A DNA stretch of 64,000 bases, from positions 13,453 to 77,452 of the forward strand of contig DAOWDN010000013.1 in NCBI GenBank assembly GCA_030639005.1. Direction: 5' to 3'. The notes beneath the pieces were generated by a model, which saw nothing but the letters and a program-made list of their open reading frames with translations, was not told where the DNA came from and searched no databases. Position numbers and translations under genes: made by a program. Shown in pieces: positions 28,691-64,000 of this stretch. Each line of letters starts with the position of its first letter. Within the stretch, counting starts at the first letter, position 1. This DNA comes from Bacteroidia bacterium (GTDB lineage Bacteria > Bacteroidota > Bacteroidia > Bacteroidales > GCA-2748055).

Positions 28691-28918
28691 TGGTAATTAT
28701 TAAGAGTATAAATGAAAGAATTAATAGCATATGAAGCAAGAAATATAATTAATTTAATAAAAATGGCATATGCACAACATTCACAAAAACAGACAGATAC
28801 AAAGGTTGATAAATTATTCTTGAAATAAGTTCATTTTTCTGGGTAACGTTTCATGCTTTTCTGGAATTAACACTTGAAAACAAGAACAAACTTAGGTTGA
28901 ACCCCTAATTGAAAAGCC

Positions 28919-48059: not shown

Positions 48060-50480
48060 TTACTCTTTGGATTTGATCTTTACCGTCGAGGGTCTGAGTC
48101 CGTCAGCCGAGGCACTGATGATCAGGTCACCCGGTTCACTTCCGGCCTGGAGGATCAGAAGTTGTTTCCCTTTCCTGACCTCTTTTGAGGAGGATCCATA
48201 TGGTGTATGATCGGCCAGATCGCCATTATCGATGGCCCTGATCCTACCCGGACCTTCCAGCTGGTAATTGACCAGGTGCTTGCTTCCAGGATTGAGTTCA
48301 CCAGTGCTGTCGACCACACTGGTGGTAATATGGACAATGCGGCTCTCACTTCTTACCTGTTTCCGGTCGGGCTGCATGGCCAGGGCATAGGCTGGAGATG
48401 AGGAGATCAGGGTATCAGATACCATTTGTGTTGTTCCCCTGTCATCAAGGTAATAAGCATGAGCCACCAGTTCTCCTGATTCGTAGGGGACAGTTGTCTT
48501 GATCACACCATCTGGAAATCTCTCTTTCTCAAGGGTATGTATCAACCTGTTATTCAAAGAAAGTTCCACCCTGCTGCAGTTGGTAAATATCACCACCTCT
48601 TTGGGTGTAGTATCGTTCATAAAGCTCCAGTGATCGACCAGTGGGGCTCCCACCCAGCTTGTTTGCCAGCTGGTAAGCTTATTCAGGGAATCGGCCAGGA
48701 GAGAATCTTTTACAGTAAGTTTTACCATGGGATCGTCAAGGTACTGAGAGGCGATATACCAGGCGTGGGGTTTGATAAATCCGTTGGTCTCCATCAGACC
48801 ATTCCTTAAACCGCGGTCGGGCCATCCGGCCGATTCGCCCAGGTAGTCGATGCCTGCCCAGATAAACTGTCCCGCTACAAATTCGTCCATATCGTTCCAG
48901 GAGTTGTCGGTATAGTCGATCACCTGGTAATCCTCTTTCCGGAGGGTTCCGTACGCTTTTGTTTCGGTGGCAATAAAGACCAGGTCGGGGTACTCTGCAT
49001 GCCAGGTTCTGAATGAGTCGCTCCGGTAGTTGTAGGATACCACCGGGGAGACATGCATCAGGCTGCTGGGGACCTCGTCTCTGCGATCAGCGTTTCCGGG
49101 ATGAAGGGCAGCAGTGACCATCCTGGTGGAATCGATCGATAACACAAGCTCTTTCAATTTGCTGTACATAGTCACGCCGTCTGCCGGAATGATCAATTGC
49201 TCCAGGGTTTCATTGCCCACACTCCAGAGAACCACCGATGGGTGGTTCCTGTCCCGCCGTATAAAATTAGACAGATCGGTCTGGTAGCTCTCCTCCAGGC
49301 TATAGTCCTCCGCAGCGCCAAGCCAGGGCTGCTCCCATTTATCATACATCTCATCAATGACCAGGAATCCCATTCGGTCGCATAGGTCCAGTACTTCCGG
49401 GGCATGCGGATTGTGAGCAAGCCTCAATGCGTTTACACCCAATTCTTTTAAGAGGCCAAGTCTTCTTTCCCAGACCTCACGGGGGACCGCTGCGCCAAGT
49501 TCTCCTCCATCGTGATGAATGCATACTCCCTTCATGACCACCTTCTTCCCGTTCAGTACGAAGCCGCGATCGGGATCAAACTCCGCCGAACGTATTCCAT
49601 GCTTGAGACTGACGTGATCGAGCTGTTTGTTCCTGTCCATCAGGTAGCAGTGTACTGTATAAAGTTCCGGGGTATCGGGCGACCATAACCTGGGATCCTC
49701 AATGATGAACGTACGCTTGTTCATGCCACTGCTTCCCGACTCCAGGTGTTCACTGCTATTTCCGTCGGCCAGCAGCTTTCCGCCCGGACCAACAATGTCG
49801 TATTTGACCTCAAATCGACGGGCTTTTCGGCCGTTGTTCCTGAACTCTATGGAGATATCCAGAAGGGCCCTGCCGGCACTGTCGATCCGTGAACTCACAG
49901 CCTGTCCCCATACAGGCGTATGCAGCTCATTGGTGGTGATCAGCCTTACGTGCCTGTATATGCCTCCGCCAGAATACCAGCGGTCGATGGGCAGTTTACT
50001 GCAATCGGTCCTGACCGCAATTACATTGAGTGTATCCATGCGGATCAGTGAGGAGATGTCGTGATAGAAACTGGAGTAGCCATAGATCTGTTTCCCCAGG
50101 TGTGTACCGTTAAAGAAGACATCGGCATTCATCTGTACCCCTTCAAAAAGAAGGTAAAACTGTTTCGTGTCCTCATACTCGGTCAGGTCGATGGTTTTCC
50201 GGTACCAGCCAATGCCTTCAGGGTAGAAACCTCCCGGCTTACCGGAAGGATTGTTCTGGTGTACAGGTTGCTCTACCATCCAGTCGTGGGGAAGTGAAAG
50301 ATATCTCCAGCCCGAATCGTCATATTGTGGTCCGGCTGCACCCTTTGGGTCCCCCATTGTAAATCTCCAGTTCAGATCGATGGTGGTATCGATACGGGGC
50401 AAGGCCTGCCGGGTACGGTAGATAACGAGGGTGGCTAAAATAAATACGATGCCAAATATGATCCAGTGTATTACTTTCAT
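48060..50480 (-). CDS. Glycoside hydrolase family 2 enzyme (beta-galactosidase-like)
   Basis: GH2 sugar-binding N-domain (WRYLSLPHDW), a TIM barrel with NALRLAHNPHAPEVLDLCDRMGFLVIDE, and the acid/base context WSVGNE. Confidence 0.9.
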   Translation of the reverse strand: MKVIHWIIFGIVFILATLVIYRTRQALPRIDTTIDLNWRFTMGDPKGAAGPQYDDSGWRYLSLPHDWMVEQPVHQNNPSGKPGGFYPEGIGWYRKTIDLTEYEDTKQFYLLFEGVQMNADVFFNGTHLGKQIYGYSSFYHDISSLIRMDTLNVIAVRTDCSKLPIDRWYSGGGIYRHVRLITTNELHTPVWGQAVSSRIDSAGRALLDISIEFRNNGRKARRFEVKYDIVGPGGKLLADGNSSEHLESGSSGMNKRTFIIEDPRLWSPDTPELYTVHCYLMDRNKQLDHVSLKHGIRSAEFDPDRGFVLNGKKVVMKGVCIHHDGGELGAAVPREVWERRLGLLKELGVNALRLAHNPHAPEVLDLCDRMGFLVIDEMYDKWEQPWLGAAEDYSLEESYQTDLSNFIRRDRNHPSVVLWSVGNETLEQLIIPADGVTMYSKLKELVLSIDSTRMVTAALHPGNADRRDEVPSSLMHVSPVVSYNYRSDSFRTWHAEYPDLVFIATETKAYGTLRKEDYQVIDYTDNSWNDMDEFVAGQFIWAGIDYLGESAGWPDRGLRNGLMETNGFIKPHAWYIASQYLDDPMVKLTVKDSLLADSLNKLTSWQTSWVGAPLVDHWSFMNDTTPKEVVIFTNCSRVELSLNNRLIHTLEKERFPDGVIKTTVPYESGELVAHAYYLDDRGTTQMVSDTLISSSPAYALAMQPDRKQVRSESRIVHITTSVVDSTGELNPGSKHLVNYQLEGPGRIRAIDNGDLADHTPYGSSSKEVRKGKQLLILQAGSEPGDLIISASADGLRPSTVKIKSKE

Positions 50481-51593: not shown

Positions 51594-52637
51594 ATGACAA
51601 CAAAATGGAATAATACCGTCTTTAATATCGTATTCTGGCTGGCCTATTTTCTCTATGCCTGGCTGACCATGGCTTCCATTTACAATGAGTACCAGCGTTA
51701 CCTGATTAATGCTGCGGTACTCGTTCCCATCACAGCATCGGCTGCTGTGTTTACCGTGCATTTCCTGTTCAGGGTGCTTTATCAGAGGAACAGAAAAATC
51801 CTGTTCTGGACCGGGCTCTTCCTGAGTATGTTTGTCTTTATTCTAATCAGGCGTAGTTTCAATTATTTTTACACCTACCCATTGTATTATCCGGAGGCGC
51901 TGGAGACCATGTCTTTCTGGTTTTTGCCTAAGTTAATTATCGAGGGAGTGAATATCTACCTTTTTGTCGGCCTCTACAGCATGTTCTATTTTATCAAGGC
52001 GTGGTACGACCAGGAACGCCTGTCACATACTCTGAAGCAGGAGAAGGCCGAAGCTGAACTGAAGTTGCTGAAATCGCAGGTGCAACCACACTTCATTTTC
52101 AACACACTTAATAACATCTACTCCTACGCAGTTCAGAAAAATGAAAAAACCGCAGATCTCATCCTCCAATTATCCTCCTTTCTTAGCTATGGGTTGTATG
52201 AGAGCAAGCCAGAGTTGGTGCCCCTTCAGAAGGAGATCGATGTGATCAGATCTTACATTGAACTGGAAAGGATCAGGTATGGAGATCGCCTGGATGCTTC
52301 CATCAACGTTTTCGACAATGTGGACCAAACACTAATTTCTCCACTGCTCCTGTTGCCCCTGGTAGAGAACAGTTTTAAGCACGGATTTACTTCTTCGATC
52401 GATAAATGTTGGATCAGACTAGATATCTCCTGTTCCAGGGAAGAGCTGGTGGTGAAGATTGAAAACAGCATCGGAGAGGAGCAGGAGAAGAGTGAGTCAG
52501 ACAATGGGGGACTAGGACTGATGAACTTGCGGCGAAGGCTTGAAATCTTATATCCATCGAAACATGAGTTCAGAACGAAAATAGTGAAAGACTCATTTCT
52601 TGCAGTTTTAAAAATCAAAATAAAGCGTCATGGTTAG
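51594..52637 (+). CDS. LytS/YehU-type sensor histidine kinase (His_kinase PF06580-like)
   Basis: N-terminal TM helices, the hallmark QVQPHFIFNTLNNIYS, and a HATPase tail (LLLLPLVENSFKHG, GGLGLMNLRRRL). Confidence 0.85.
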   Translation: MTTKWNNTVFNIVFWLAYFLYAWLTMASIYNEYQRYLINAAVLVPITASAAVFTVHFLFRVLYQRNRKILFWTGLFLSMFVFILIRRSFNYFYTYPLYYPEALETMSFWFLPKLIIEGVNIYLFVGLYSMFYFIKAWYDQERLSHTLKQEKAEAELKLLKSQVQPHFIFNTLNNIYSYAVQKNEKTADLILQLSSFLSYGLYESKPELVPLQKEIDVIRSYIELERIRYGDRLDASINVFDNVDQTLISPLLLLPLVENSFKHGFTSSIDKCWIRLDISCSREELVVKIENSIGEEQEKSESDNGGLGLMNLRRRLEILYPSKHEFRTKIVKDSFLAVLKIKIKRHG

Positions 52638-53352
52638 ATGCCTGATCGTTGATGATGAACCCCCGGCCAGGGAACTAATAGCTTCTTACATCTCAAGGCT
52701 GAACGACCTGGTACTGGTGGAGCAGTGCGGAAATGCACTGGAAGCATTCAGTTGCTTGCAGAACCAGACCATCGATCTGATGTTTCTTGATATTCAGATG
52801 CCGAAGATGACCGGTTTGGAGCTAATCAAGTCGCTCCACAATCCACCGAAAATCATCCTGACCACCGCTTACAAGGAGTATGCCAGTGAAGGCTTCGACC
52901 TGGATGTGCTGGATTACCTGGTAAAACCCATTCCGTTCGAGCGCTTTATGAGATCGGTGGCCAAGTACCACCAGTATACCAACAGGACTGTGGAAGAGGC
53001 CCCCCTGGAGAGCACCTACGACAGGGCCTATCTCTTTGTGAAGGTAAACAAGGAACAAGTAAAGCTGTATTTCAAAGAGATTATTGTCATTGAGAGCATG
53101 AAAGATTATATCAGGATTACCACACACGACGCCTCCTTTGTGACATACAGCCGTCTCTCTTACATGGACGAAGTACTTCCTGAGACACGGTTTGTACGTA
53201 TTCATAAATCATACATCATTGCGTTAAGTGAGGTTAAGTCATACCGAAATGACTCAGTGACAGTGGGAGATTCCACATATCCTGTTGGAAGGATCTACAA
53301 GAAGAGGTTCCAGGATGCACTATTAAGCTATCAGAATGGAGTAAGAGAGTAG
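52630..53352 (+). CDS. LytTR-family DNA-binding response regulator
   Basis: REC domain (CLIVDDEPPA, FLDIQMPKMTG, KPI) plus a LytTR domain (IIVIESMKDYIRITTHD...FVRIHKSYII). It overlaps the kinase gene by 8 nt. Confidence 0.9.
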   Translation: MVRCLIVDDEPPARELIASYISRLNDLVLVEQCGNALEAFSCLQNQTIDLMFLDIQMPKMTGLELIKSLHNPPKIILTTAYKEYASEGFDLDVLDYLVKPIPFERFMRSVAKYHQYTNRTVEEAPLESTYDRAYLFVKVNKEQVKLYFKEIIVIESMKDYIRITTHDASFVTYSRLSYMDEVLPETRFVRIHKSYIIALSEVKSYRNDSVTVGDSTYPVGRIYKKRFQDALLSYQNGVRE

Positions 53353-53416: not shown

Positions 53417-53424
53417 TATTTTTG
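53417..53424 (+). promoter_or_regulatory. Candidate Bacteroidota -7 promoter box (TATTTTTG = TAnnTTTG) upstream of the propeller cluster
   Basis: Exact consensus match 35 nt upstream of ATG 53459, in the only sizeable gap (106 nt) before the nine-gene cluster. Confidence 0.3.
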
Positions 53425-53458
53425 AGCACTTACAAAACGTGATCAACATGAATAAAGG

Positions 53459-54670
53459 ATGATGAAGAAATTAACTTTAATTATACTCTGCCTGACCGCA
53501 GTTTTGTCGGGTTATTCACAGGATCCAACCAGTTGGAGGGGACCCACCCGTGACGGGATCTATCCCGAAACCGGATTGATGAAAGAGTGGCCTGCAGACG
53601 GACCGGAAGTTCTGTGGAGTTTCGAAGGATTGGGAAAGGGTCACTCCTCGGCCATCGTGGACAATGGTTTTGTCTATGTCACCGGGATGATTAACGAGCA
53701 AGGCTACCTTTTTAAGTTTGATCTGAAAGGAAAACTGGTATATAAAAAGACTTATGGTCCCGAATTCGCAGAGAGTTACGTAGGAACCCGGGGTACACCG
53801 ACTATTGTTGGTGAAAAGGTTTACCTTATGAGTGGACACGGAAAACTCTACTGCCTCGATGGAGGAAAGGGGACGATCCTTTGGAGCAAAGATCTCTTTA
53901 AGGATTTCGATGGAAAAATTATCGGGTGGGGAATGAATGAAACACCTGTGGTGGATGGCGATGTGGTATATATTACCCCGGGAGGGAGAAAGTACAATTT
54001 GGTGGCCCTGGACCGCCACTCCGGAAAACTGATCTGGAGTTCCCCCGGTAAGGGTGAACTGACAGCATACAGCACACCACTTCTGTTTGAACACAATGGA
54101 AGAAAAATGTTGGCCACCCACTACGAATCTCATCTGGTGGGATTTGATGCAAGCACAGGCAAGATGCTCTGGTCGCAGCACCAGCCCAACGAATATTCGG
54201 TACACCCAAATACACCTGTCTACCGCGATGGAATGCTATTCTACCTGAGTGGATACGGTAGGGGGGGTGGCATGCTGAAGATTGCTCCGGATGGCAATTC
54301 GGCATCGCGAGTATGGACCCACAAAAAGATGGACAGCCGCATGGGAGGTGCAGTGCTGGTGGATGGCTACATATATGGTTCTGGCGACAGCAGGCTCTGG
54401 TGCTGCTTTGACTGGAAGAGCGGCAAGGAGATGTATACCTCCAAGGATATCGGCAATGGCGTGGTGATTTATGCCGACGGAATGCTTTATTGCTACAGCC
54501 AGAGGGGCGAACTGGCCCTGGTCGAACCCGATCCTGCAGGCTTTAAAGTGGTCAGCAAGACCAAAGTGCTGCTGGGTTCCGAGCAACACTGGGCCCATCC
54601 GGTCATCTATGGGGGGGTGCTCTATGTTAGGCATGGCAAAGCGTTAATAGCTTATAAAGTCAAAAGCTGA
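53459..54670 (+). CDS. Secreted PQQ-like/BamB-type beta-propeller repeat protein, paralogue 1
   Basis: Signal peptide, then SWRGPTRDGIYPETGLMKEWPADGPEVLW. Repeated (V/I)Y(V/I)..G.L.(A/C)(L/F)D..(T/S)G...W blade motifs run throughout. It is alignable by eye with the next two ORFs. Confidence 0.85.
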   Translation: MMKKLTLIILCLTAVLSGYSQDPTSWRGPTRDGIYPETGLMKEWPADGPEVLWSFEGLGKGHSSAIVDNGFVYVTGMINEQGYLFKFDLKGKLVYKKTYGPEFAESYVGTRGTPTIVGEKVYLMSGHGKLYCLDGGKGTILWSKDLFKDFDGKIIGWGMNETPVVDGDVVYITPGGRKYNLVALDRHSGKLIWSSPGKGELTAYSTPLLFEHNGRKMLATHYESHLVGFDASTGKMLWSQHQPNEYSVHPNTPVYRDGMLFYLSGYGRGGGMLKIAPDGNSASRVWTHKKMDSRMGGAVLVDGYIYGSGDSRLWCCFDWKSGKEMYTSKDIGNGVVIYADGMLYCYSQRGELALVEPDPAGFKVVSKTKVLLGSEQHWAHPVIYGGVLYVRHGKALIAYKVKS

Positions 54671-54691
54671 AAGTCTGTAAAGCTGAAAGTC
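54656..54691. repeat. AAAGTC/AAAGCT-rich direct repeats at the paralogue 1/2 junction
   Basis: AAAGCTGAAAGTC occurs twice (54663 and 54679, 16-nt period). The 13-mers AAAGTCAAAAGCT (54656) and AAAGTCTGTAAAG (54670) recur at 61758 and 61807. Confidence 0.8.
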
Positions 54692-54693
54692 AT

Positions 54694-55935
54694 ATGATGA
54701 GATTTATAATCGCGACGGTGGTCGTGATCGCATTTACACAAAACCTCCTGGCACAGGATGTGCAGTGGAGAGGGCCCAACAGGGACGGGATCTATGCCGA
54801 TACCGGTTTGTTGAAAGAGTGGCCCGAAGAGGGACCTGAGGTATTGTTTGTGGCTGAGGATCTGGGCAGGGGTTTTTCTTCGGCAGTAGCCACCAGTGAT
54901 ATGATTTATGCGTCAGGCATCAGGGATACCCTCGAGTACCTTACAGCTCTGAACCTGAATGGGGAGAAGTTGTGGGAGAAACCAATCGGTCGTTGCTGGA
55001 ACCAGTCTTTCCCCGAAACCCGGAGTACACCAACGGTGGAAGGTAACAGATTATATATGTTGACCGGCATGGATATGATGGTCTGTTTCCATGCGCTTAC
55101 CGGGGAGGTAATCTGGAGTGTGGACCTGCATGAGGTGTATGGTTCGCGCTGGGATATGTTTGGGGTTTCGGAATCGGTGCTGATTGTGGGAGACAAGGTG
55201 ATTACCACCCCGTGTGGGGAGTTAACCACGGCCATTGCCCTGGATAAAATGACCGGGGAGCTTATCTGGAAATCCAGGTCCATGGACGCCAGCCGTGGCA
55301 ATTTGTCCCCCATCCTGATTGAGCATTGTGGAAAAGAGTATGTCATCACTTCCACCCAGACTCATATGATAGGAGTCGATCCGGAGAATGGAGAGATTCT
55401 CTGGGACTACCACTACAACTTTCTGAATTCGGCACATGAGAATACGACCATCCTGGCCAATACGCCCATTTATAACGATTCCTGCGTATGGATCTCCAAC
55501 GGTTGGGATGTGCCATCAGTGATGCTTGAGATTGCTCCCGACGGGCGATCCGTTTCGGAGAAGTTCAGGGACCAGACCTTTGACAACCAGAATCACGGTG
55601 TGGTACTGGTGGACGGCTACCTCTACGGCTCCAATTTTACAGGGAGAAACAGCGGTAAATGGGTCTGCATGAACTGGAATACAGGGGAGATTGTTTGGAT
55701 CGGTGATTTTTACAACAAGGGGCCCTCTGTTTATGCCGATGGCATGCTCTACATCTATGAAGAGAAGCGGGGCAACATGGGACTGGTAAAAGCCGATCCC
55801 AAGAAATTTGAATTGGTCAGTTCATTCCGGCATTACGAAGGAAGTGGCCCGCACTGGGCACGTCCCACCATCTTCAATCAGATGTTGCTGGTGAGGCATG
55901 GAGAAAAATTAACAGCCTATAAAATAGGCAGTTAG
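54694..55935 (+). CDS. Secreted PQQ-like/BamB-type beta-propeller repeat protein, paralogue 2
   Basis: Signal peptide, then QWRGPNRDGIYADTGLLKEWPEEGPEVLF. It shares NQSFPETRSTPTVEG with paralogue 3 (NRSFPETRSTPTIED). Confidence 0.85.
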   Translation: MMRFIIATVVVIAFTQNLLAQDVQWRGPNRDGIYADTGLLKEWPEEGPEVLFVAEDLGRGFSSAVATSDMIYASGIRDTLEYLTALNLNGEKLWEKPIGRCWNQSFPETRSTPTVEGNRLYMLTGMDMMVCFHALTGEVIWSVDLHEVYGSRWDMFGVSESVLIVGDKVITTPCGELTTAIALDKMTGELIWKSRSMDASRGNLSPILIEHCGKEYVITSTQTHMIGVDPENGEILWDYHYNFLNSAHENTTILANTPIYNDSCVWISNGWDVPSVMLEIAPDGRSVSEKFRDQTFDNQNHGVVLVDGYLYGSNFTGRNSGKWVCMNWNTGEIVWIGDFYNKGPSVYADGMLYIYEEKRGNMGLVKADPKKFELVSSFRHYEGSGPHWARPTIFNQMLLVRHGEKLTAYKIGS

Positions 55936-55962
55936 TAGTTTATAGTTAACGAATAAAGAGAT

Positions 55963-57222
55963 ATGAGATACAGGAAATTTGCAGTAGTGACGGCAGCGGT
56001 ATGGATACTGGCTTTGTTGACCATCGCACAGATCCAGGCACAGGATACACAGTGGAGGGGGGCCAACAGGGATGGAAAATATCCCGATTCCGGATTGCTG
56101 AAAAGCTGGCCGGAGAGTGGCCCGGAACTGATCCTTAAGAAGGATGATCTGGGCAATGGATACTCTTCCCCCATAGTTTATGAAGGAATGATCTACATCA
56201 GCGGGAGGCGTCAGGAGGAGGATGTCATCACCAAACTTGACCTTCAGGGAAACATTCTGTGGGAAACCGTGTATGGGAAAGCCTGGAATAGGAGCTTTCC
56301 CGAAACCAGAAGCACACCTACTATTGAAGATGGACGAATTTACATCATGGGCGGACTGGGAACCATAGTGTGCATGGATACTGAGAAAGGGGAGATCCTC
56401 TGGCAGGTGAATACCCATGAGGAGCACGGGGGTGAATTTCATCGCTGGGGAATGACCGAATCGCTTCTGTTGACTGGCAGTGTAGTAATCTCTTCGCCCA
56501 CAGGGGAACAGACAGCTGTGGTTGCCCTGGATAAAAAGGACGGATCTCTTTTATGGAAATCCAAACCCCAGGGAGGGGTAAGATCCTACGTATCCCCCAT
56601 GCTGATCGAACACAATGGTACGAGGATGGTTCTGATCACCTCCAGCGAAGATTTTCTGGCAGTGGATCCCGAAACAGGAGAGGTATTCTGGAGCATCGAC
56701 CTGGTTATGGAATACGGTTTCGATGGCCGCAGGAACAATACCAACACCCCTCTTTTCCATAACGGAGAAATTTTTACCACCAGCGGTTATGATGCTTCCG
56801 CAGTAATGATAAAGCTATCTAAAGACGGGAAAGATGCTGAGGTCAAATGGAGCAACGACGTCCTTGATACCCACCATGGGGGCGTGGTGCTGCTGGATGG
56901 CTTCATCTATGGTTCCAACTGGCTCAACAACGGCAACGGAAACTGGGTTTGCCTGGAGTGGGAGTCCGGGAAGGTTATGTACGAGGAGAAGTGGTTCAAC
57001 AAGGGATCCATCATCTACGCAGACGGACTTCTTTATATCTTTGAGGAGAAGAACGGAAACATTGGATTGCTTGAACCAAGCCCCGAAGGTTTCGAACTGA
57101 TCAGCTCCTTTTTGCCTGAAGGTGGAACAGGACCCTGGTGGGTACACATGACCATCTATGAGAAGAAGCTGTTTGTGAGGCACGGAGCAACGCTTTTTGT
57201 GTATGATATAGAAAAGAGTTAA
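55963..57222 (+). CDS. Secreted PQQ-like/BamB-type beta-propeller repeat protein, paralogue 3
   Basis: Signal peptide, then QWRGANRDGKYPDSGLLKSWPESGPELIL. It is colinear with paralogues 1 and 2. Confidence 0.85.
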   Translation: MRYRKFAVVTAAVWILALLTIAQIQAQDTQWRGANRDGKYPDSGLLKSWPESGPELILKKDDLGNGYSSPIVYEGMIYISGRRQEEDVITKLDLQGNILWETVYGKAWNRSFPETRSTPTIEDGRIYIMGGLGTIVCMDTEKGEILWQVNTHEEHGGEFHRWGMTESLLLTGSVVISSPTGEQTAVVALDKKDGSLLWKSKPQGGVRSYVSPMLIEHNGTRMVLITSSEDFLAVDPETGEVFWSIDLVMEYGFDGRRNNTNTPLFHNGEIFTTSGYDASAVMIKLSKDGKDAEVKWSNDVLDTHHGGVVLLDGFIYGSNWLNNGNGNWVCLEWESGKVMYEEKWFNKGSIIYADGLLYIFEEKNGNIGLLEPSPEGFELISSFLPEGGTGPWWVHMTIYEKKLFVRHGATLFVYDIEKS

Positions 57223-57263
57223 AGGGTTAGTGAGGTAGTAGAGTGAGGATAAATACGACAAAT

Positions 57264-58670
57264 ATGGTGACCGGGTTGCTGCTGCTTATGGGAGTGGTTT
57301 CCATGGGTTGGTGGCTGGCAAAGGACCCGGTGAGTGAATTTGTGACCACCCAGCCCGGACTGGATAACCGCGGAGAGGGCGGGGTGGTGGCCGATATCGA
57401 TATCGGGGCCTATTTTGAGTCGCTCGGCACCCTCGATTCGGATCTGCAGGAGACATGGCCCAGGTTTCGGGGAGAGCAGTTCGACAACATCAGCCGCTCA
57501 CAAGTCAGGTTGATTGAGAAGTTTCCTGACGGGGGACCGGTAGTGAAGTGGGAAGTTTCCCTGGGGGAGGGCCACGCAGGTGCAGCCATCTACAAGGGAG
57601 CAGTCTACGTAATGGATTACGATGAGGAGCAGCGGGCTGACCTGCTGCGGGCCTATGTCCTGGAAACCGGGGAGGAGCTCTGGGTGCGGGGGTACAAGAT
57701 CAACCTGAAAAGGAACCATGGCATGTCACGTACCGTCCCGGCCGTTACAGAGGAGCATATCCTTACCATTGGTCCACGCAGCCATGTGATGTGTGTGCGT
57801 CGTGTGGACGGGGAGTTTCTCTGGGGACTGAATGTTGAGAAAGATTATGAGGCTGAAATTCCACTCTGGTATACGGGACAATGTCCCCTTATCCACCAAG
57901 GCAAAGCAGTGATAGCCACCGGAGGCACCTCCCTGCTGGTTGCCCTCGATATGGAAAGTGGTGAGATACTCTGGGAGACCCCCAATGAGAAGGGGTGGCA
58001 GATGTCGCACTCCTCGGTGATGCCATACGAATTCGGGGGAAAGCTTATGTATGTGTACAGTGCCTACGGAGGGGTATTCGGTGTGGAAGCTGAAGGTCCC
58101 GATGCCGGCAAGATCCTCTGGGAAACAACTGCCTGGAACCACCAGGTGGTGGCTCCCTCACCGGTATGCATGCCCGACGGAAAGGTATTTCTTACTGCCG
58201 GTTATGGCGCGGGTGCCATGGTATTACAGCTCTCTCCTGCCGGGGAGGGATTCAGTGTGGAGGTGCTTAGCGAGTACACACCCAAAGAGGGACTTGCCTG
58301 CGAACAGCAGACCCCGGTGGAATTCAACGGGCACCTGCTGGGGATCCTCCCCAAGGATGCCGGTCCGCTCAGGAACCAGTTGATCTGTGTGCATCCCGAC
58401 AACTTTAGCAAGGTGATCTGGTCGAGCGGCCAGGACAAACGGTTTGGACTGGGGCCCTACATGATCGCTGACAACAAACTCTTTATATTGAGTGACGATG
58501 CCACACTGACCATAGTCAGGCCCAGCACAAGCCAGTACCTGGAGCTGGACAGTTACAGGGTACTGGAGGGGTACGATGCCTGGGGTCCGCTGGCCATTGC
58601 CGACGGGTACCTGGTGATGCGTGATTCGAAAACCATGGTGTGTCTCGATATGGCCGCATCACGGCAGTGA
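57264..58670 (+). CDS. Membrane-anchored PQQ-like beta-propeller repeat protein, paralogue 4
   Basis: N-terminal TM helix (MVTGLLLLMGVVSMGWWLA), then WPRFRGEQFDN and propeller blade motifs. The ORF is open from GTG 57243, but ATG 57264 is preferred. Confidence 0.8.
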   Translation: MVTGLLLLMGVVSMGWWLAKDPVSEFVTTQPGLDNRGEGGVVADIDIGAYFESLGTLDSDLQETWPRFRGEQFDNISRSQVRLIEKFPDGGPVVKWEVSLGEGHAGAAIYKGAVYVMDYDEEQRADLLRAYVLETGEELWVRGYKINLKRNHGMSRTVPAVTEEHILTIGPRSHVMCVRRVDGEFLWGLNVEKDYEAEIPLWYTGQCPLIHQGKAVIATGGTSLLVALDMESGEILWETPNEKGWQMSHSSVMPYEFGGKLMYVYSAYGGVFGVEAEGPDAGKILWETTAWNHQVVAPSPVCMPDGKVFLTAGYGAGAMVLQLSPAGEGFSVEVLSEYTPKEGLACEQQTPVEFNGHLLGILPKDAGPLRNQLICVHPDNFSKVIWSSGQDKRFGLGPYMIADNKLFILSDDATLTIVRPSTSQYLELDSYRVLEGYDAWGPLAIADGYLVMRDSKTMVCLDMAASRQ

Positions 58671-58690
58671 ACAATGAAAAAGAGAACAGG

Positions 58691-59677
58691 ATGAAAAAGA
58701 GAGGTTTGACAATCGTAATTCTGGTGATCCTGACTGTGATAATCGGGGTGATTGTGGTTGATTTTCTGAACAACCGGCCCGATCGCAGGGGAGAGAATCC
58801 CTATGCCCTGGAGGTGGACCAGTACAAAGTGGTAGACCCGGAGCTGATTTCCCATAAGGAGACCCGGAACTTTGATCTGGGACTGCTGATCGCCTCCGAC
58901 ATGAGCCTGTATGACCGGGCCCTTTATGTTTCAGGAAACTCATCGCTGGTGGTGATCCCCCTGGATGGCAGACCGGCTACCATGCATGAGATTCTGCCAC
59001 GGGCTACCTGCCTTGAGGTGGACCAGGGGAATATCTTTGTAGGTTTCTCCACCTATGTGGCAAAGTACAGCCATGAGGGAGAGCTGTTGCAGGAGTGGCC
59101 CCACCTGGGCGAAAGCACAGTGATCACCAATCTGGCCATCAAGGAGGATAAAGTATTTGTAGCCGATGCCGGCAACCGGCGCATAGTGATCTTCAACCGC
59201 GAAGGTGAGCAGGAGGGAGAATTTGAGGGGAAGGCCGAATCTGAAGCAGGACATGGATTTATTATTCCCAGTGCCAATTTCGACCTGGCGGTGAACAGCT
59301 TTGGGGAATTGTGGGTGGTGAACACGGGTAAACATGCCCTGGAGAATTACAGCGATGACGGACGGATGCGGGGTTACTGGGATAAGGCTTCCTTTGATAT
59401 TGATGGATTCATGGGATGTTGCAATCCTGCACGCATAACGGTTATGGAGGATGGCTCCTTTGTGACCAGTGAGAAGGGAATTGTCAGGATAAAAATTTAT
59501 GATCAGTCTGGAGAACTGATCAGTGTGGTGGCACCACCTGCTCTCTTTAAGAAAGAGAGGAGTGCCAATGAAGAGGGAAAAGCACCGGAGGTTTGCGTAG
59601 ATGAGAACGGAGTGGTTTACGCACTAGATTTTGACAGAGATGTGATCAGAGTTTTTGAACCGATTGAATCAGAATAG
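58691..59677 (+). CDS. Membrane-anchored NHL-repeat beta-propeller protein
   Basis: N-terminal TM helix (LTIVILVILTVIIGVIVV) and NHL-type blades (VFVADAGNRRIVIFNREGE, ELWVVNTGKHALENYSDDG, VVYALDFDRDVIRVFE). Start at ATG 58691. Confidence 0.8.
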   Translation: MKKRGLTIVILVILTVIIGVIVVDFLNNRPDRRGENPYALEVDQYKVVDPELISHKETRNFDLGLLIASDMSLYDRALYVSGNSSLVVIPLDGRPATMHEILPRATCLEVDQGNIFVGFSTYVAKYSHEGELLQEWPHLGESTVITNLAIKEDKVFVADAGNRRIVIFNREGEQEGEFEGKAESEAGHGFIIPSANFDLAVNSFGELWVVNTGKHALENYSDDGRMRGYWDKASFDIDGFMGCCNPARITVMEDGSFVTSEKGIVRIKIYDQSGELISVVAPPALFKKERSANEEGKAPEVCVDENGVVYALDFDRDVIRVFEPIESE

Positions 59678-59687
59678 TCAGAAAAGC

Positions 59688-59900
59688 ATGGACAGAAGAG
59701 ACTTTGTACAAAAAATTGGCAGGGGAAGCTTGCTGGCGGCAATGGCTGCTGTGGCAGGGATCCTACTGGCCCGCAGACAGGTGGTTCCCGACCAGGAGTG
59801 CAACGATAGAAAGCAATGCAGAGAGTGCCCGAGCTTGTCGCAATGCCAGTTGCCAGAAGCCATAACTACTCGCGATCATGGAGAAGAAGGACAAGGATAA
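59688..59900 (+). CDS. Small (70 aa) twin-arginine-signal protein with a C-x5-C-x2-C-x5-C motif
   Basis: MDRRDFVQKIGRGSLLAAMAAVAGILLA is a Tat-type RRxFxxK n-region plus h-region. The mature part QVVPDQECNDRKQCRECPSLSQCQLPEAITTRDHGEEGQG has four Cys. It starts 10 nt after the NHL gene and overlaps the ferredoxin gene by 23 nt. Confidence 0.6.
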   Translation: MDRRDFVQKIGRGSLLAAMAAVAGILLARRQVVPDQECNDRKQCRECPSLSQCQLPEAITTRDHGEEGQG

Positions 59901-60468
59901 GGATAAGGGATACAACAGGCGATCGTTTATCAACAACGGGGTGAGGCTTGCCCTGGGTGTATCGGTGGTGGGCACTGCTGCGTTTACCCTGCAGCGTTCC
60001 GCTTCCGGGAAAGACTATGTATGGCAGATCGATCCCTTTAAATGTACCCAGTGCGGACGGTGTGCCACCGAATGTGTGAAGGCCGAATCGGCGGTGAAGT
60101 GTGTCCACGCTTACGCTCTGTGTGGGTACTGCGATTTGTGTGGTGGCTATTTCAAGCCGGGTGCCAAGTTGCAGACCGGTGCTGAAAACCAGCTCTGTCC
60201 CACCGCAGCCATCCAGCGGAAGTTTATCGAGGAGCCCTATTTTGAATACATTATCGACGAAGAGCTTTGCATTGGTTGTGCCAAATGTGTGAAGGGGTGT
60301 TCCGCCTTCGGGAACGGATCGCTCCACTTACAAATCAGACACGATCTCTGTCTCAACTGCAATCAGTGCTCCATAGCCACCAACTGTCCGTCTGATGCCA
60401 TCAGCCGGGTGCCGGCCAGTGAACCATACATCATTAAAGGTAATTTCACCACCGAGGAGGAGAGTTAA
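59878..60468 (+). CDS. Twin-arginine-signal poly-[4Fe-4S] ferredoxin (NapG/MauM-like)
   Basis: Tat motif NRRSFINNGVRLALGVSVVGTAAF. Cys motifs are CTQCGRCATEC, C-x7-CGYCDLCGG, CIGCAKCVKGC and CLNCNQCSIATNCP. Confidence 0.8.
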   Translation: MEKKDKDKDKGYNRRSFINNGVRLALGVSVVGTAAFTLQRSASGKDYVWQIDPFKCTQCGRCATECVKAESAVKCVHAYALCGYCDLCGGYFKPGAKLQTGAENQLCPTAAIQRKFIEEPYFEYIIDEELCIGCAKCVKGCSAFGNGSLHLQIRHDLCLNCNQCSIATNCPSDAISRVPASEPYIIKGNFTTEEES

Positions 60469-60469
60469 T

Positions 60470-61831
60470 ATGCTGAAAAAAATCCCCAACCTTGCTCTCA
60501 TACTTATTCTTTTTGCACTGTTGACAGGCAGTTTCCTCCAGGCCCAGCAACGCTTTCCAAAACCTGAGTTCGATACGGGATATGTGCAGCCCGATCCCAC
60601 CACCCCTGAACCGAGGGCTATGGCGCTGGAATATTTCGATGTGTTGGTGCTGCTGGCAGTACTGTCTCTGGCCTCGTGGCTGGCAGTGAAGAAGCGGTCG
60701 AGGCGCGGTTTGCTCTGGTTGTCCGTGTTTTCGCTGATCTATTTCGGATTTTACCGCGACGGATGTATTTGTTCCATTGGGGCAATACAGAATGTGGCAC
60801 TCTCAATCTTCGATCCGGGGTATGCCATCTCCATCACTGCACTGCTCTTTTTTATTCTGCCCCTCCTCTTTGCCCTTTTCTTCGGGCGCACCTTCTGCGC
60901 GGCAGCCTGTCCGCTTGGAGCCATACAGGATCTTGTGGTGATCAATCCCGTTTCAATCCCCAGCTGGATCAGGAAAACCCTCGGGTTTATCCCGGTGATC
61001 TATCTGGCTCTGTCGGTTTTGTTTGCAGCTACCGGAAGCGATTTTATCATCTGCAGGTACGATCCCTTTGTGGGGATTTTCCGTATGGACGGTCCTTTCT
61101 TAATGATTTTCCTGGGGATCACTTTCCTGCTGCTGGGGATGTTCTATGCCCGGCCCTACTGCAGGGTGTTTTGTCCCTACGGGGTGCTGCTGAGCTGGAT
61201 GTCAAAGTTCTCAAAATGGCACCTCTCCATCACTCCTTCGGAGTGCATCAAATGCAAACTGTGTAAAGATTCCTGTCCTTTCGATGCCATCGAAGTACCG
61301 GTAGAACAAGCTTACAGGACACCGGAAGTTTCCAGAAAGAACCTGAAAAGATTTATTCTCTATATAGGGCTGATCCCGGTGCTGATCCTGCTGGGTGGAT
61401 GGATCGGTTCAAAATCTCATATTTTCCTGAGCCGCGTTCACCCCGATGTCTACCTGGCCGAACTGATGATCAGTCAACCCGAACTGAAAGAGGATGAGGA
61501 GAACCTGGATATCCAGGCCTTTCTGGAATCGGGCGATACTTTTGAGCAGCTGGTTGACCAGGCTGCAGTGATCCGGGAGAAGTTCAGGAAAGGTAGCTTG
61601 GTCATGGGAGGGTTTATAGGACTGGCCCTGGGTATTACACTGATGAACCAGGTGGTGTTCCGGCGCCGGGAGGATTACGAACCCCACAAGGGGGATTGTT
61701 TCTCCTGTGGCCGTTGCATGGATTACTGCCCCATAGACAGTCAAAAGTCAAAAGGCGAAAGTCAAAAGCTAAATGTCGAAAGTCTAAAGCTAAAAGTCGA
61801 AAATCAAAAGTCTGTAAAGTCAAAAGGATGA
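60470..61831 (+). CDS. Integral-membrane polyferredoxin (NapH/MauN-like, two CX3CP motifs plus two 4Fe-4S motifs)
   Basis: N-terminal signal or TM helix and multiple TM helices. CX3CP motifs are FCAAACPLG and YCRVFCPYG. CxxCxxCxxxCP motifs are CIKCKLCKDSCP and CFSCGRCMDYCP, and they are separated by two extra predicted helices. Start at ATG 60470, 1 nt after the ferredoxin stop. Confidence 0.8.
   Translation: MLKKIPNLALILILFALLTGSFLQAQQRFPKPEFDTGYVQPDPTTPEPRAMALEYFDVLVLLAVLSLASWLAVKKRSRRGLLWLSVFSLIYFGFYRDGCICSIGAIQNVALSIFDPGYAISITALLFFILPLLFALFFGRTFCAAACPLGAIQDLVVINPVSIPSWIRKTLGFIPVIYLALSVLFAATGSDFIICRYDPFVGIFRMDGPFLMIFLGITFLLLGMFYARPYCRVFCPYGVLLSWMSKFSKWHLSITPSECIKCKLCKDSCPFDAIEVPVEQAYRTPEVSRKNLKRFILYIGLIPVLILLGGWIGSKSHIFLSRVHPDVYLAELMISQPELKEDEENLDIQAFLESGDTFEQLVDQAAVIREKFRKGSLVMGGFIGLALGITLMNQVVFRRREDYEPHKGDCFSCGRCMDYCPIDSQKSKGESQKLNVESLKLKVENQKSVKSKG
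61739..61826. repeat. Tandem 21-23-nt AAAGTC/AAAGCT repeats (about 3 full units plus partials) forming the 3' end of the polyferredoxin gene
   Basis: Units are GAAAGTCAAAAGCTAAATGTC (61757), GAAAGTCTAAAGCTAAAAGTC (61778) and GAAAATCAAAAGTCTGTAAAGTC (61799). They encode ESQKLNV/ESLKLKV/ENQKSVKS. Two 13-mers are shared with 54656-54682. Confidence 0.8.
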
Positions 61832-63681
61832 AAAATAATTTGGATCAGGAACAAAGAATATCGCTGGCCCACAGGGTGGCGCTGATTTCCGGGATCTTCT
61901 GCGGGGTGGTGGCCCTGCTGCTGATATTGAACTTCTGGCACATGAAGCAGCATGAACCGCTGGAGAGCAAAACCATCGAAGTGCTGGTGGAAAGGCTGTC
62001 CAGTGAACCCGGTAATGAGGAGCTTAAGGAGGAGATCCGCAGCTTCGACCTGCTGGCACGCAAAGCCTACTTCACCAGCCGGTGGCAGGTAAAAACAGGT
62101 ACCTGGCTCTTGTTGTTCGGCGGCATTGTAATGGCTGCTTCACTGAAGGTATATACCGATTTACGGGCCAGGATCGAAGCGCCCGAAAAAGTAACAGAAG
62201 AGCTGCTTCGTGCCAGGGCTAATTCCCAGTACTGGCTGATGGTGGCCGGGGGACTCATCCTGGGTTTCTCGCTGGTGGCAGGATACCTGAGTAACGACTA
62301 CCTGAAGGAGTATCAGGCCATGGGTGTTGTGGAAGAGACAGAACAGCCGCAGGATGGGATTGAGGTAATCAAAGTTTTCCCCGCCCAAGAGTCAGCCGAT
62401 ACCTTGGGAAGTGATTCCGCCATTGAACAGGAGGGTGCATCCGGAGCTGAGGCAATCGAAGGTGCCGGAGATGAGACAGAAACTGCCACACAACCGGTTG
62501 CAGTTCAAACAACATCCCGGTTTAATCGTGATGATTTCAAAACGAACCAGGCCACGTTCAGGGGATACATGGGGCAGGGGGTTTCCTATCACAAAAATAT
62601 CCCGGAAAAGTGGAACGGCTCCACCGGAGAAAATATCAAATGGAAGGTGGCCTTCTCCAAACCCGGGTACAACACCCCGGTGATCTGGGACGATAAACTC
62701 TTTATCTCAGGAGGTGATGCTGCCTCAAGGGTCGTGGCATGCTATAACCGGAACAACGGTCAACTACTGTGGGAGAAGGAGGTGACAGGCATTCCCGGAT
62801 CACCTGCAGCGATGCCGAGGGTGACCGACGATACGGGACTGGCTGCCCCCACCATGGCGGTGGACGGCAATCGGGTCTATGCCATTTTTGCCACTGGCGA
62901 TGTAGTTGCATTCGACCTGCAGGGCAACAAAATCTGGGGCCGCAACCTGGGGGTTCCAAATAACCATTACGGACACTCCTCTTCGCTACAGGTATGGGAG
63001 AACAAACTGGTGGTGCAGTATGATACCAATACCAGGGGCAGGATGCTGGCCCTAAATACTGCCAACGGTGAGACTCTCTGGGATGTGGAACGTCCGGTTC
63101 ATATCTCCTGGGCCTCCCCGGCGCTGATCGAAGTGAACGGGAAGATCCAGGTGATCACCACTGCTGATCCTTATGTGTCGGGGCATGATCTGGAAACAGG
63201 GGCTGAAATCTGGAAGGTGGAGGCGATGATGGGCGAAGTGGGACCCTCCGTGGCCTATGAGGACGGACTGGTGTATGCCACCAACGAGTATGCCCGCCTG
63301 GTTGCCGTGGAGCCCAAGCCGGGAGCCGAGTTTACCTGGGAGGACGATGAGTACCTGTCCGAAGCGGCCAGTCCGGTGGCTTACAACGGATTGCTTTATC
63401 TGGCCACCAGTTATGGAGTGCTTGTCTGTTACGATGCCCTTACCGGGGAGAAGCAGTGGGAGAAAGAGTATAATGAAGGATTCTATTCTTCCCCGATGAT
63501 CGCCGATGGAAAACTGTATATCATCGACCTGGATGGTGTGACCCACATTATCAAGGCCGATCGTTCAGGCACCGTGGTTGCAGATCCCGAACTGGGCGAA
63601 GGTGGTTTTGCACTCCCGGTATTTGCAGACGGAGTGATCTACCTCAGGGGCATGGAGCATTTGTATTGTGTTGGGGAATAA
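61828..63681 (+). CDS. PQQ-like beta-propeller repeat protein fused to a 3-TM N-terminal domain and an acidic linker, paralogue 5
   Basis: ATG 61828 overlaps the upstream stop (ATGA). Three hydrophobic helices are followed by an acidic low-complexity linker (EETEQPQDG...EGAGDETETATQP). Then come FRGYMGQG and propeller blades (LFISGGD, VYAIFATGDVVAFDLQGNKIW, LYLATSYGVLVCYDALTGEKQW). Confidence 0.8.
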   Translation: MKNNLDQEQRISLAHRVALISGIFCGVVALLLILNFWHMKQHEPLESKTIEVLVERLSSEPGNEELKEEIRSFDLLARKAYFTSRWQVKTGTWLLLFGGIVMAASLKVYTDLRARIEAPEKVTEELLRARANSQYWLMVAGGLILGFSLVAGYLSNDYLKEYQAMGVVEETEQPQDGIEVIKVFPAQESADTLGSDSAIEQEGASGAEAIEGAGDETETATQPVAVQTTSRFNRDDFKTNQATFRGYMGQGVSYHKNIPEKWNGSTGENIKWKVAFSKPGYNTPVIWDDKLFISGGDAASRVVACYNRNNGQLLWEKEVTGIPGSPAAMPRVTDDTGLAAPTMAVDGNRVYAIFATGDVVAFDLQGNKIWGRNLGVPNNHYGHSSSLQVWENKLVVQYDTNTRGRMLALNTANGETLWDVERPVHISWASPALIEVNGKIQVITTADPYVSGHDLETGAEIWKVEAMMGEVGPSVAYEDGLVYATNEYARLVAVEPKPGAEFTWEDDEYLSEAASPVAYNGLLYLATSYGVLVCYDALTGEKQWEKEYNEGFYSSPMIADGKLYIIDLDGVTHIIKADRSGTVVADPELGEGGFALPVFADGVIYLRGMEHLYCVGE

Positions 63682-63704
63682 AATTTGCAAGGCAAATTTT
63701 ATTC
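63676..63704 (+). terminator. 13-bp perfect hairpin spanning the stop codon of paralogue 5 (possible intrinsic terminator)
   Basis: GAATAAAATTTGC-aag-GCAAATTTTATTC. The stem is AT-rich and its distal arm ends in TTTTATTC. A second short hairpin, GCTTGC-tgc-GCAAGC, lies at about 63714-63728. Confidence 0.4.
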
Positions 63705-63756: not shown

Positions 63757-64000
63757 GTGGAGATTGAAATAAGAGATATAGATGCGATGGTGGAGGAACT
63801 GGGAGGCGGGCAGAGCTCTGTCATACCCATTCTGCAAGCCATCCAGGAGCGGTACAACTACCTGCCCGAAGAGGCATTGCGCAGGGTGTGTGAGATTTCT
63901 GAGATCACCGCGGCTCAGATAGTGGGGGTAGCCAGTTTCTATTCCCAGTTCAGGTTTACCCCGGCCGGTGACCACATGATCAAGGTATGTGTGGGCACTG
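63757..64000 (+). CDS. NuoE/HoxE-like [2Fe-2S] thioredoxin-fold subunit of an NADH-linked oxidoreductase/hydrogenase; 3' end outside the window
   Basis: Hand translation gives VEIEIRDIDAMVEELGGGQSSVIPILQAIQERYNYLPEEALRRVCEISEITAAQIVGVASFYSQFRFTPAGDHMIKVCVGT. This is the characteristic NuoE block ending in the first cluster Cys (VCxGT). The start may be GTG 63757 or ATG 63787. Confidence 0.75.
   Translation, partial: MEIEIRDIDAMVEELGGGQSSVIPILQAIQERYNYLPEEALRRVCEISEITAAQIVGVASFYSQFRFTPAGDHMIKVCVGT

Follow-up and report, generated by a model that had tools for sequence, protein, structure and literature searches.

NapH-like iron-sulfur systems are used in a modular way. NapGH, NosGH, and their relatives combine a polytopic CX3CP polyferredoxin that has two cytoplasmic [4Fe-4S] motifs with a multi-cluster ferredoxin exported by the twin-arginine translocation (Tat) pathway, and the family is associated with the periplasmic β-propeller enzymes NosZ, NirS, and ExaA (PMC8238504). 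The Fe-S clusters of NapH are cytoplasmic and NapG is periplasmic (PMC5449189). On the cytoplasmic side of metabolism, the electron-bifurcating Bfu enzymes, such as NfnABC and Stn (PMC9304861, PMC10482914, PMC12018979), have a BfuB or BfuBC core that is distinguished by an extra [2Fe-2S] domain and by C-terminal 2×[4Fe-4S] domains (PMC9304861). Here we describe a locus with elements of both: nine genes (g1–g9, forward strand, positions 53459–63681) in a 64,000-nucleotide stretch of a Bacteroidia bacterium (assembly GCA_030639005.1, contig DAOWDN010000013.1), hereafter called the window. By comparison with other genomes, these nine genes appear to open a longer cluster, conserved across four or more bacterial phyla, in which they are followed by genes for a cytoplasmic Bfu-type flavoprotein. 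The searchable literature provides general background only (PMC8238504, PMC9304861, PMC5449189, PMC5928378) and holds no described system that joins NapH-like proteins, NuoF/Bfu flavoproteins, and PQQ or NHL propellers.

The nine forward-strand open reading frames are all present, and with the likeliest start codons (see the table; g4 may start at 57264 instead) the successive spacers are +23, +27, +20 (or +41), +20, +10, −23, +1, and −4 nucleotides (nt), which reproduces the co-directional arrangement of a preliminary description made from the sequence (spacers of −23 to about +41 nt). All nine products were searched against the profile hidden Markov models (HMMs) of Pfam and NCBIfam with curated cut-offs applied, and neither these databases, nor the PDB, nor the literature yield a characterized locus, as had been anticipated. 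The preliminary description took the nine genes as the complete unit, ending at a 13-bp hairpin. The hairpin exists, but the conserved cluster does not end there. The stem overlaps the stop codon of g9 and has no U-tract 3′ of it, and the genes beyond are conserved, for which reasons a canonical intrinsic terminator was rejected; the hairpin is possibly an attenuator, or else an element of processing or stability, with the unit continuing beyond it. A NuoE-like open reading frame starts 75 nt past the stop codon of g9 and 52 nt past the hairpin, and in relatives the cluster continues with this gene and others.

The extent of the cluster was established by scanning one genome per species with an alignment of g8 as query, which gave more than 573 confirmed loci; gene order was mapped at the species level with tblastn in the best 80 of these. 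The best 80 are nearly all labeled Bacteroidota, one record being titled Chlorobiota, and include the cultured Draconibacterium orientale DSM 25947, D. sediminis, and Maribellus sp. CM-23. In essentially every sufficiently long locus among them one finds the same order: one to three copies of the g1/g2/g3 type, g4 to g9, a NuoE-NuoF fusion (NuoEF, 780 residues), a GltD-like protein (521 residues), a further secreted PQQ_2 propeller (d3), a GT4 gene, and an ABC transporter made of a LolD/MacB-like ATPase and an FtsX/MacB permease (genes downstream of g9 in relatives are numbered d1–d5, NuoEF being d1). Median intergenic gaps are of 11 to 57 nt, with 36 nt between g9 and NuoEF (64 loci).

Outside Bacteroidota the set is rearranged. 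With g4 as query against 1.8 billion cluster representatives, HMMER identified a family of 340 clusters at 50% identity with E < 1e-30, and the source names of its members include Spirochaetota, Lentisphaerae, Planctomycetota, and Kiritimatiellae. The loci of these and other lineages (lower part of the table) range in GC content from 0.35 to 0.73 among those carrying the set; the reading frames of g9 and NuoEF overlap in L087, L088, and L092, the GT4 gene moves to the front in L085 and before d3 in L087, and GT4 and the ABC genes are absent from L088 and L092. Hence, the co-occurrence of propeller and Fe-S genes, on which the preliminary description had made its proposal depend, is found in the same order in some 80 species-level Bacteroidota genomes and in rearranged form in Spirochaetota, Kiritimatiellae, Planctomycetota, and others. 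Judged by presence across lineages, the conserved core is g4, g5, (g6), g7, g8, g9, NuoEF, and the BfuA/GltD-like gene, with g1–g3, d3, GT4, and the ABC genes as frequent accessories. The GT4 protein keeps an N-terminal C-x-N-C-x-R-D across lineages (L001, 18315–19610; L085, 6127–7425; L087, 14950–16236). Genes for an AhpC/TSA redoxin, an extra propeller, and an FGE-sulfatase-domain protein precede the cluster in L087 (2291–5498), and a hemerythrin gene is found near that of L085. Neither neighborhood is conserved elsewhere, and a role in periplasmic detoxification of O2 or reactive oxygen species, which these genes would have suggested, was rejected for this reason.

Table. Features of the window (upper part) and gene content of loci from other lineages (lower part).
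Feature	Position	Strand	Evidence or gene content
g1, secreted PQQ_2 propeller of eight-blade type, paralogue group g1–g3	53459–54670	+	PF13360, E 5e-24
g2, secreted PQQ_2 propeller paralogue	54694–55935	+	PF13360
g3, secreted PQQ_2 propeller paralogue	55963–57222	+	PF13360
g4, N-terminal transmembrane anchor and PQQ_2 propeller, candidate catalytic subunit	57243–58670	+	PF13360, AlphaFold
g5, transmembrane-anchored six-blade NHL propeller with invariant vicinal Cys-Cys	58691–59677	+	weak NHL match, AlphaFold
g6, small Tat-like signal/anchor peptide, C-x5-C-x2-C-x5-C	59688–59900	+	Cys pattern, alignments
g7, Tat-exported ferredoxin, four cluster motifs	59878–60468	+	multiple Fer4 matches, RRSF motif
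g8, NapH-like membrane polyferredoxin	60470–61831	+	two Fer4_5 (CX3CP) units and Fer4
g9, three-transmembrane domain fused to PQQ_2 propeller	61828–63681	+	PF13360, E 5e-29
A/U-rich 13-bp hairpin, arms 63676–63688 and 63692–63704	63676–63704	+	−23.6 kcal/mol, z −4.1
NuoE-NuoF fusion (BfuC-BfuB-like), 5′ end	63757–64000	+	81 residues, cut at window end
TATTTTTG box, Bacteroidota −7-like	53417–53424	+	read in sequence, 35 nt 5′ of g1
His_kinase and LytTR response-regulator pair	51594–53352	+	Pfam (PF06580), directly upstream of g1
221-residue protein, weak C-terminal helix-turn-helix	50477–51142	−	divergent from cluster
GH2 glycosidase	48060–50480	−	adjoins 221-residue protein gene, divergent from cluster
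L084, Spirochaetota			g1, g4, g5, g7, g8, contig end
L085, GC 0.42			GT4, g2/3, g4, g5, g6-g7 fusion, g8, g9, NuoEF, short BfuA-like, d3, ABC
L087, GC 0.73, front			AhpC, propeller, FGE-sulfatase, g4-g5 fusion, g6-g7 fusion, g8, g9
L087, rear, after g9			NuoEF, short BfuA-like, GT4, d3, ABC
L088, Kiritimatiellae			g4, g5, g6, g7, g8, g9, NuoEF, GltD-like, nothing further
L090, Planctomycetota			g1, g4, g5, g6, g7, g8, contig end
L091, L092			same core

The genes that follow g9 link the cluster with a described enzyme family. The NuoEF fragment in the window is 64% identical to the N-terminus of the 780-residue fusion of locus L001, and the domain comparison with Bfu enzymes was made on this ortholog, the window holding its first 81 residues only. 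The L001 protein contains, in order, 2Fe-2S_thioredx (residues 9–152), a 2Fe-2S ferredoxin-like stretch (183–255), Complex1_51K, NADH_4Fe-4S, and Fer4_21 (727–777), and thus carries both extra cluster domains that mark bifurcating BfuB. Its best PDB matches are NfnB of archaeal NfnABC (9n5u_B, 2e-213), followed by StnB (8oh5_B). The next gene (d2) codes for a 521-residue [2Fe-2S]/GltD-like Fe-S flavoprotein, whose best matches are residues 1–300 of StnA and NfnA. In terms of sequence, the cytoplasmic pair most resembles the bifurcating NfnABC/Stn enzymes, bifurcation itself being a prediction. The likeness covers the cofactor domains of BfuBC in NuoEF and the N-terminal [2Fe-2S] and GltD part of StnA/NfnA in the following gene (compare PMC9304861, PMC10482914, PMC12018979). 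There are also differences: BfuC and BfuB are fused, the BfuA-like subunit has about half the length of StnA or NfnA and has lost its NADPH domain in some lineages, and the genes are embedded among membrane and periplasmic ones, whereas the predicted Mbh-Bfu and Nuo-Bfu complexes use other membrane modules. Because the GltD/NADPH part is absent from L085 and L087, the universal element would be BfuBC with an Fe-S BfuA-like subunit. The preliminary description had cited NapGH as a quinol-oxidizing module. A donor of this style is no longer the default, being superseded by the conserved presence of NuoEF and its BfuA/GltD-like partner, which is what separates the cluster from NapGH/NosGH on the donor side and makes a cytoplasmic NAD(P)H/ferredoxin donor likelier than quinol.

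The membrane component g8 is homologous to NapH/MauN while falling outside the curated family (TIGR02163: 41 bits, E 1.5e-10, cut-off 213); it is also weakly related to NosR, and a search of PDB sequences gives generic matches only. It has a cleavable signal and, by hydropathy, about seven transmembrane segments. Across phyla the invariant elements are a periplasmic segment that follows the signal (QRFPxPEF..Y..P), a G-C-[IV]-C loop, two CX3CP units, and an [IV]-C-x-Y-D-P-F loop. The two CxxCxxCxxxCP motifs are invariant across phyla as well and are parted by two extra transmembrane segments; the motifs read FCAAACP and YCRVFCP, then CIKCKLCKDSCP and CFSCGRCMDYCP. From hydropathy and the positive-inside rule, the CX3CP and 4Fe-4S motifs are predicted to face the cytoplasm and the invariant C99, C101, and C195 to lie in periplasmic loops, in agreement with the arrangement described for NapH (PMC5449189). 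The signal, the periplasmic N-terminal segment, and the two inserted transmembrane segments distinguish g8 from NapH and MauN. In the window the C-terminus of g8 (61740–61831) has a Lys-rich tail (...KLNVESLKLKVENQKSVKSKG) that is missing from most orthologs.

The periplasmic ferredoxin g7 has an RRSF motif at residue 14 and 16 conserved Cys in four motifs, sufficient for four [4Fe-4S] clusters. It shares with NapG and MauM the Tat signal and the four motifs, but the curated model does not recognize it: the NapG/MauM model is absent among its 17 NCBIfam matches with E ≤ 0.01, and PDB sequences give generic ferredoxin matches only. Accordingly, of the "NapGH/MauMN-like" label of the preliminary description the architecture stands and family membership does not; for g7 and g8 the label is an analogy. 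Two other features set the module apart from NapH-like systems. The cluster has no cytochrome c, the motif scan of all nine products having found no CxxCH heme motif, as had been noted by eye, and its client propellers have no recognizable cofactor. Moreover, neither FMN_bind nor ApbE has a Pfam match in the nine products or in d1–d5, unlike the flavinylation-associated NapH-like systems (PMC8238504).

The small protein g6 has no Pfam match. It had been described as a 70-residue twin-arginine peptide with four Cys, and both RRxF (present in g6 and g7) and the four Cys are confirmed in the window, but a strict twin-arginine is not kept across the orthologs: besides the four Cys, conservation extends to the first Arg only, and the position of the second is taken by R, K, or N. 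The model for a "formate dehydrogenase region TAT target" (TIGR02811) was rejected, as it scores 25 bits against a cut-off of 48 and covers the signal-peptide region only. In L085 and L087 the g6 element is the N-terminal extension of g7, with a Tat-like signal/anchor, C-x5/6-C-x2-C-x5-C, and a C-x-L-P-x-A tail. Planctomycetota L090 and Kiritimatiellae L088 have it as an open reading frame of its own that gene calling had missed, and Spirochaetota L084 lacks it. Because it forms the N-terminus of g7 in two lineages, g6 looks like a split-off module of the periplasmic ferredoxin, one that is probably cluster-binding, and not like a cofactor subunit of the MauA type. The question arises because the mau cluster also has a NapGH-like pair (MauM/MauN) beside a β-propeller protein and a small Tat-targeted Cys-rich polypeptide. 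Here, however, the corresponding peptide has only four conserved Cys, is a ferredoxin module elsewhere, and does not bear tryptophan tryptophylquinone, and mau accessory genes are lacking. A methylamine dehydrogenase/mau system was rejected, since the nine products have no Pfam match to Me-amine-dh_H or Me-amine-dh_L. The cluster is thus set apart from both NapH-like and Bfu systems by its non-NapG ferredoxin with the four-Cys module, its extended g8, and its embedded Bfu genes.

Among the propellers, g1–g3 are signal-peptide paralogues that open, as first described, with W-R-G-x-x-R-D-G...W-P-x-x-G-P-E. Identity is 37–38% between g1 and the other two and 43% between g2 and g3, and copy number varies from one to three across related loci. 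The best PDB sequence match of g1 is tetrathionate hydrolase (1e-9), with BamB next. Tetrathionate hydrolase is a cofactor-less periplasmic propeller enzyme. The membrane-anchored g4 is the most conserved propeller: 138 of its 475 residues are at least 95% conserved among orthologs, in stretches that include KRNHGMSRT, TGQCP, MSHSS, and EQQT, and H159, Q213, H256, R136, and R460 are retained at identities as low as about 30%. Its AlphaFold model (predicted local distance difference test score, pLDDT, of 87) has a transmembrane helix at residues 5–26 and eight blades. The conserved motifs are predicted, from the secondary-structure string of the model, to ring the central channel, in the loops that lead into the inner strands of successive blades. 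The NHL protein g5 (pLDDT 81) is modeled with six blades and a helix at residues 3–27; for both g4 and g5, the membrane anchors claimed at first are supported by the modeled helices and the hydropathy scan alike. Its motifs G-C-C-N-P (CCNP, with the vicinal pair C243/C244) and VTxEKG are invariant in distant homologs and in proteins where g4 and g5 are fused. Such fusions occur in five g4 homologs of the representative search (P0243, P0255, P0283, P0280, and P0312) and in about ten full-length cases of a later search. Since the NHL domain of g5 is there fused to the C-terminus of g4, the two probably act together. The remaining propeller, g9, has the conserved motifs NHYGHxSS and TSYG and lies between g8 and NuoEF in all related loci. 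Among the propeller groups, only g4 with its NHL partner g5 appears, on conservation, enzyme-like. In other proteins g4-type propellers are joined with squalene-hopene-cyclase-like α/α toroid domains, HEAT repeats, or a BlaR1-type M56 membrane domain (P0244, P0258, P0264, P0272), and this propeller is therefore reused in other contexts.

The folds give little indication of chemistry. Foldseek places the g4 model near tetrathionate hydrolase, BamB, and PQQ (pyrroloquinoline quinone) dehydrogenases at template modeling scores (TM-scores) of about 0.55–0.6, the best match being tetrathionate hydrolase (E 6e-16, TM-score 0.6, 14% identity); aligned with BamB structures, the target-normalized TM-score is about 0.7, in line with an eight-blade fold. 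A search of PDB sequences with g4 gives generic propeller matches only, and the top Foldseek matches of g5 are generic NHL domains. The structure predictions of g4 and g5, a kind of model that the preliminary description had proposed to inspect for cofactor pockets, show no enzyme-specific pocket by Foldseek. In spite of the eight-blade PQQ_2-type fold shared with tetrathionate hydrolase (PDB 6L8A/7CQY) and BamB, the differences are large: 14–16% identity, TM-scores of about 0.55–0.6, BamB HMM scores far below cut-off, and no lipobox. In particular, g1–g4 and g9 score 25–93 bits with the BamB models (TIGR03300/NF008351, cut-offs 285/423), the signals of g1–g3 are of signal peptidase I type, seemingly ending ...A|Q or ...S|Q, without a [GAS]-C lipobox (by eye), and g4 and g9 are membrane-anchored. 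A BamB lipoprotein is thereby rejected, and the earlier view that the "BamB assembly factor" label is unlikely to apply was justified. A sulfur-compound substrate, prompted by the likeness to tetrathionate hydrolase and by the low-potential thiosulfate couple, is unsupported at 14% identity.

The genes present, their domains, the conserved clustering, the fusions, and the Nfn/Stn homology of the cytoplasmic pair are all observed. From these we infer a membrane-spanning redox complex that links NAD(P)H/ferredoxin to periplasmic propellers, with g4 and g5 as the likely catalytic pair; we give this reading a probability of roughly 55%. The nine genes would then form its periplasmic and membrane half, and the cytoplasmic half would start in the last 244 bases of the window. 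The Bfu-type flavoprotein (the NuoE-NuoF fusion and the BfuA/GltD-like Fe-S subunit) would handle NAD(P)H, and probably ferredoxin, and would dock on the cytoplasmic 2×[4Fe-4S] face of g8. In the Nap system, NapF is a cytoplasmic Fe-S protein. Because Cys motif I of NapH is required for its interaction with NapF (PMC5928378), docking of a cytoplasmic partner has a precedent in this family, as has the family's modular use with the periplasmic propeller enzymes NirS, ExaA, and NosZ (PMC8238504). Electrons would traverse the membrane through g8, with the CX3CP motifs inside and the three invariant Cys outside, would pass to the Tat-exported four-cluster g7 with its additional four-Cys module g6, and would be delivered to the membrane-tethered propellers. 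There, g4 and its obligate partner g5, with the vicinal Cys-Cys, would form the likely catalytic site, and g9 would be an additional tethered propeller; the soluble g1–g3 and the downstream d3 may be accessory substrate-binding or specificity subunits. The flow is most likely outward, in which case fermentative anaerobes would use the complex as an electron sink or to reduce a small molecule in the periplasm. This direction is favored because fermenters typically use Bfu enzymes to get rid of NADH and reduced ferredoxin, and because the hosts look like saccharolytic anaerobes; genes for a sulfatase, GH2, and GH109 lie near the cluster in the window.

Several points weigh against this reading. 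The physical assembly of any two of the products into a complex is something that we infer, and the way in which electrons would cross the membrane is, to our knowledge, established for no NapH-family protein. The model gives no role to GT4 and the MacB-type ABC transporter, although both are conserved with the cluster. The locus L086 has g4, g5, and the Bfu pair without g7 or g8 within 10 kb, and L089 (Lentisphaerae) carries an orphan g4. Between g9 and the NuoE-like gene of the window lie 75 nt with a stable hairpin, which could terminate some transcripts. In L085 and L087, d2 lacks the GltD (NADPH) domain, and the Bfu pair could be no more than a neighbor of the cluster, namely an ordinary Nfn transhydrogenase. 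Finally, no cofactor or metal site was recognized in any propeller, and the Foldseek matches (g4 and g5) are generic.

If the pair is indeed a neighbor, g8 would oxidize menaquinol and g7 would feed the propellers in the style of NapGH/NosGH, with NuoEF and its GltD-like partner as an independent soluble Nfn/Stn transhydrogenase, an account that we consider unlikely. It would fit the four-transmembrane core, CX3CP motifs, and 2×[4Fe-4S] architecture that g8 shares with NapH, the description of NapGH as a quinol dehydrogenase (PMC5449189, PMC5928378), and the hairpin of the window; d1 and d2 between them have every domain of NfnABC/Stn, an enzyme that functions in soluble form. Yet the adjacency of g9 and NuoEF is held in at least four named phyla despite rearrangement elsewhere, often with overlapping frames, and in Bacteroidota NuoEF and its GltD-like partner have propeller genes on either side. 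Furthermore, the BfuA-like subunit of L085 and L087, having no NADPH/FAD domain, cannot be part of a transhydrogenase there.

Should the electrons flow inward instead, the propellers would be periplasmic dehydrogenases, using a scavenged PQQ-like quinone or the Cys-Cys, and would feed g7, g8, and the Bfu enzyme to reduce NAD(P)+, ferredoxin, or both. The propellers do belong to the PQQ_2 superfamily and match models of PQQ alcohol dehydrogenases in part, and PQQ methanol dehydrogenase has a vicinal Cys-Cys, such as is invariant in g5. Pairing of NapH-like proteins with ExaA, a PQQ enzyme, is seen in 172 genomes (PMC8238504), and Bfu enzymes can run in either direction (PMC9304861). Nevertheless, the Cys-Cys is located in the NHL protein and not in a PQQ-type propeller, the scores with TIGR03075 are 22–53 bits for a cut-off of 480, and PF01011 is matched over stretches of only about 40 of its 595 positions, so that a PQQ dehydrogenase was rejected; a PQQ-level potential would in any case be insufficient to reduce NAD+ or ferredoxin, which makes this direction doubtful. 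In the 64 kb of genome covered, no pqq-like gene is present among about 30 open reading frames scanned against Pfam.

The GT4 and ABC genes, which the complex proposed here leaves aside, are central to another explanation, namely that the redox chain serves the maturation or repair of an envelope component made by GT4 and handled by the MacB-type transporter, the propellers being BamB-like scaffolds or chaperones. GT4, d3, the ATPase, and the FtsX/MacB permease are kept together in Bacteroidota, L085, and L087 in spite of changes in order, BamB is among the closest solved folds, and L087 adds FGE-sulfatase and AhpC/TSA genes. However, GT4 and the transporter are missing from the otherwise complete clusters of L088 (Kiritimatiellae) and L092, the BamB models and the lipobox argue against BamB as seen above, and the very high conservation of loop motifs in g4 and g5 looks more like that of a catalyst than of a scaffold; such a biogenesis or maintenance role is therefore quite improbable. 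That the locus is no functional unit at all, its ordinary BamB-family or uncharacterized propellers having unrelated Fe-S neighbors through vertical inheritance, would agree with the database labels (BamB or "PQQ-binding-like" for the propellers, 4Fe-4S binding or NosR/NirI for g8) and with the single phylum of the best 80 matches, but is already contradicted by the recurrence of the set, with reordering and fusions, in distant phyla at GC contents of 0.35–0.73.

Regarding regulation, the box upstream of g1 is present as described, but its weight as promoter evidence is not upheld: TAnnTTTG occurs 38 times in the window where 33 are expected by chance, and TATTTTTG was set aside as evidence by itself. 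The His_kinase/LytTR pair is a possible regulator of the cluster. It is missing from the closest relatives, which have the gene for the 221-residue helix-turn-helix protein directly upstream of the cluster in its place, and a pair 34–43% identical to it lies between g1 and g2 in six loci of the Draconibacterium group (e.g., L032, 3450–5223), which suggests that the cluster acquired this regulator on more than one occasion. The 221-residue protein and the GH2 glycosidase are held at that position in 13–15 close relatives (78–86% and 64–78% identity, respectively). Elsewhere in the window, a sulfatase adjoins a stand-alone MacB_PCD/FtsX permease (13606–17547, reverse strand), the latter of the type that relatives have at the distal end of the cluster. 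A 950-residue TPR-CHAT protein (25838–28690, reverse strand) lies in a stretch that may be horizontally acquired, GC content being 0.39 within 26000–30000 and about 0.47–0.52 elsewhere.

Tentatively, the cluster may specify an undescribed respiratory or fermentative complex, widespread in anaerobic polysaccharide degraders among Bacteroidota, Spirochaetota, Kiritimatiellota, and Planctomycetota, in which a bifurcating Bfu enzyme and a heme-free, all-Fe-S conduit would serve a new periplasmic terminal oxidoreductase. The latter would pair an eight-blade propeller that has no cofactor with an NHL propeller whose vicinal disulfide is redox-active. It would offer fermenters a sink (or source) of electrons at low potential in the periplasm, for a substrate as yet unlinked to any enzyme family; taken jointly, these features make a possible rather than a probable account. 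If the membrane-spanning model above is right, Bfu-type enzymes would have a third membrane context beside the predicted Mbh-Bfu and Nuo-Bfu complexes, and there would be a heme- and flavin-free route that carries electrons of cytoplasmic NAD(P)H/ferredoxin into the periplasm. The cultured carriers D. orientale, D. sediminis, and Maribellus sp. make the system directly testable. A function would also be at hand for very many proteins that are now labeled "BamB" or "PQQ-binding-like propeller," and, the hosts being abundant anaerobes of sediments, digesters, and sludge, the substrate could matter for carbon or sulfur turnover.

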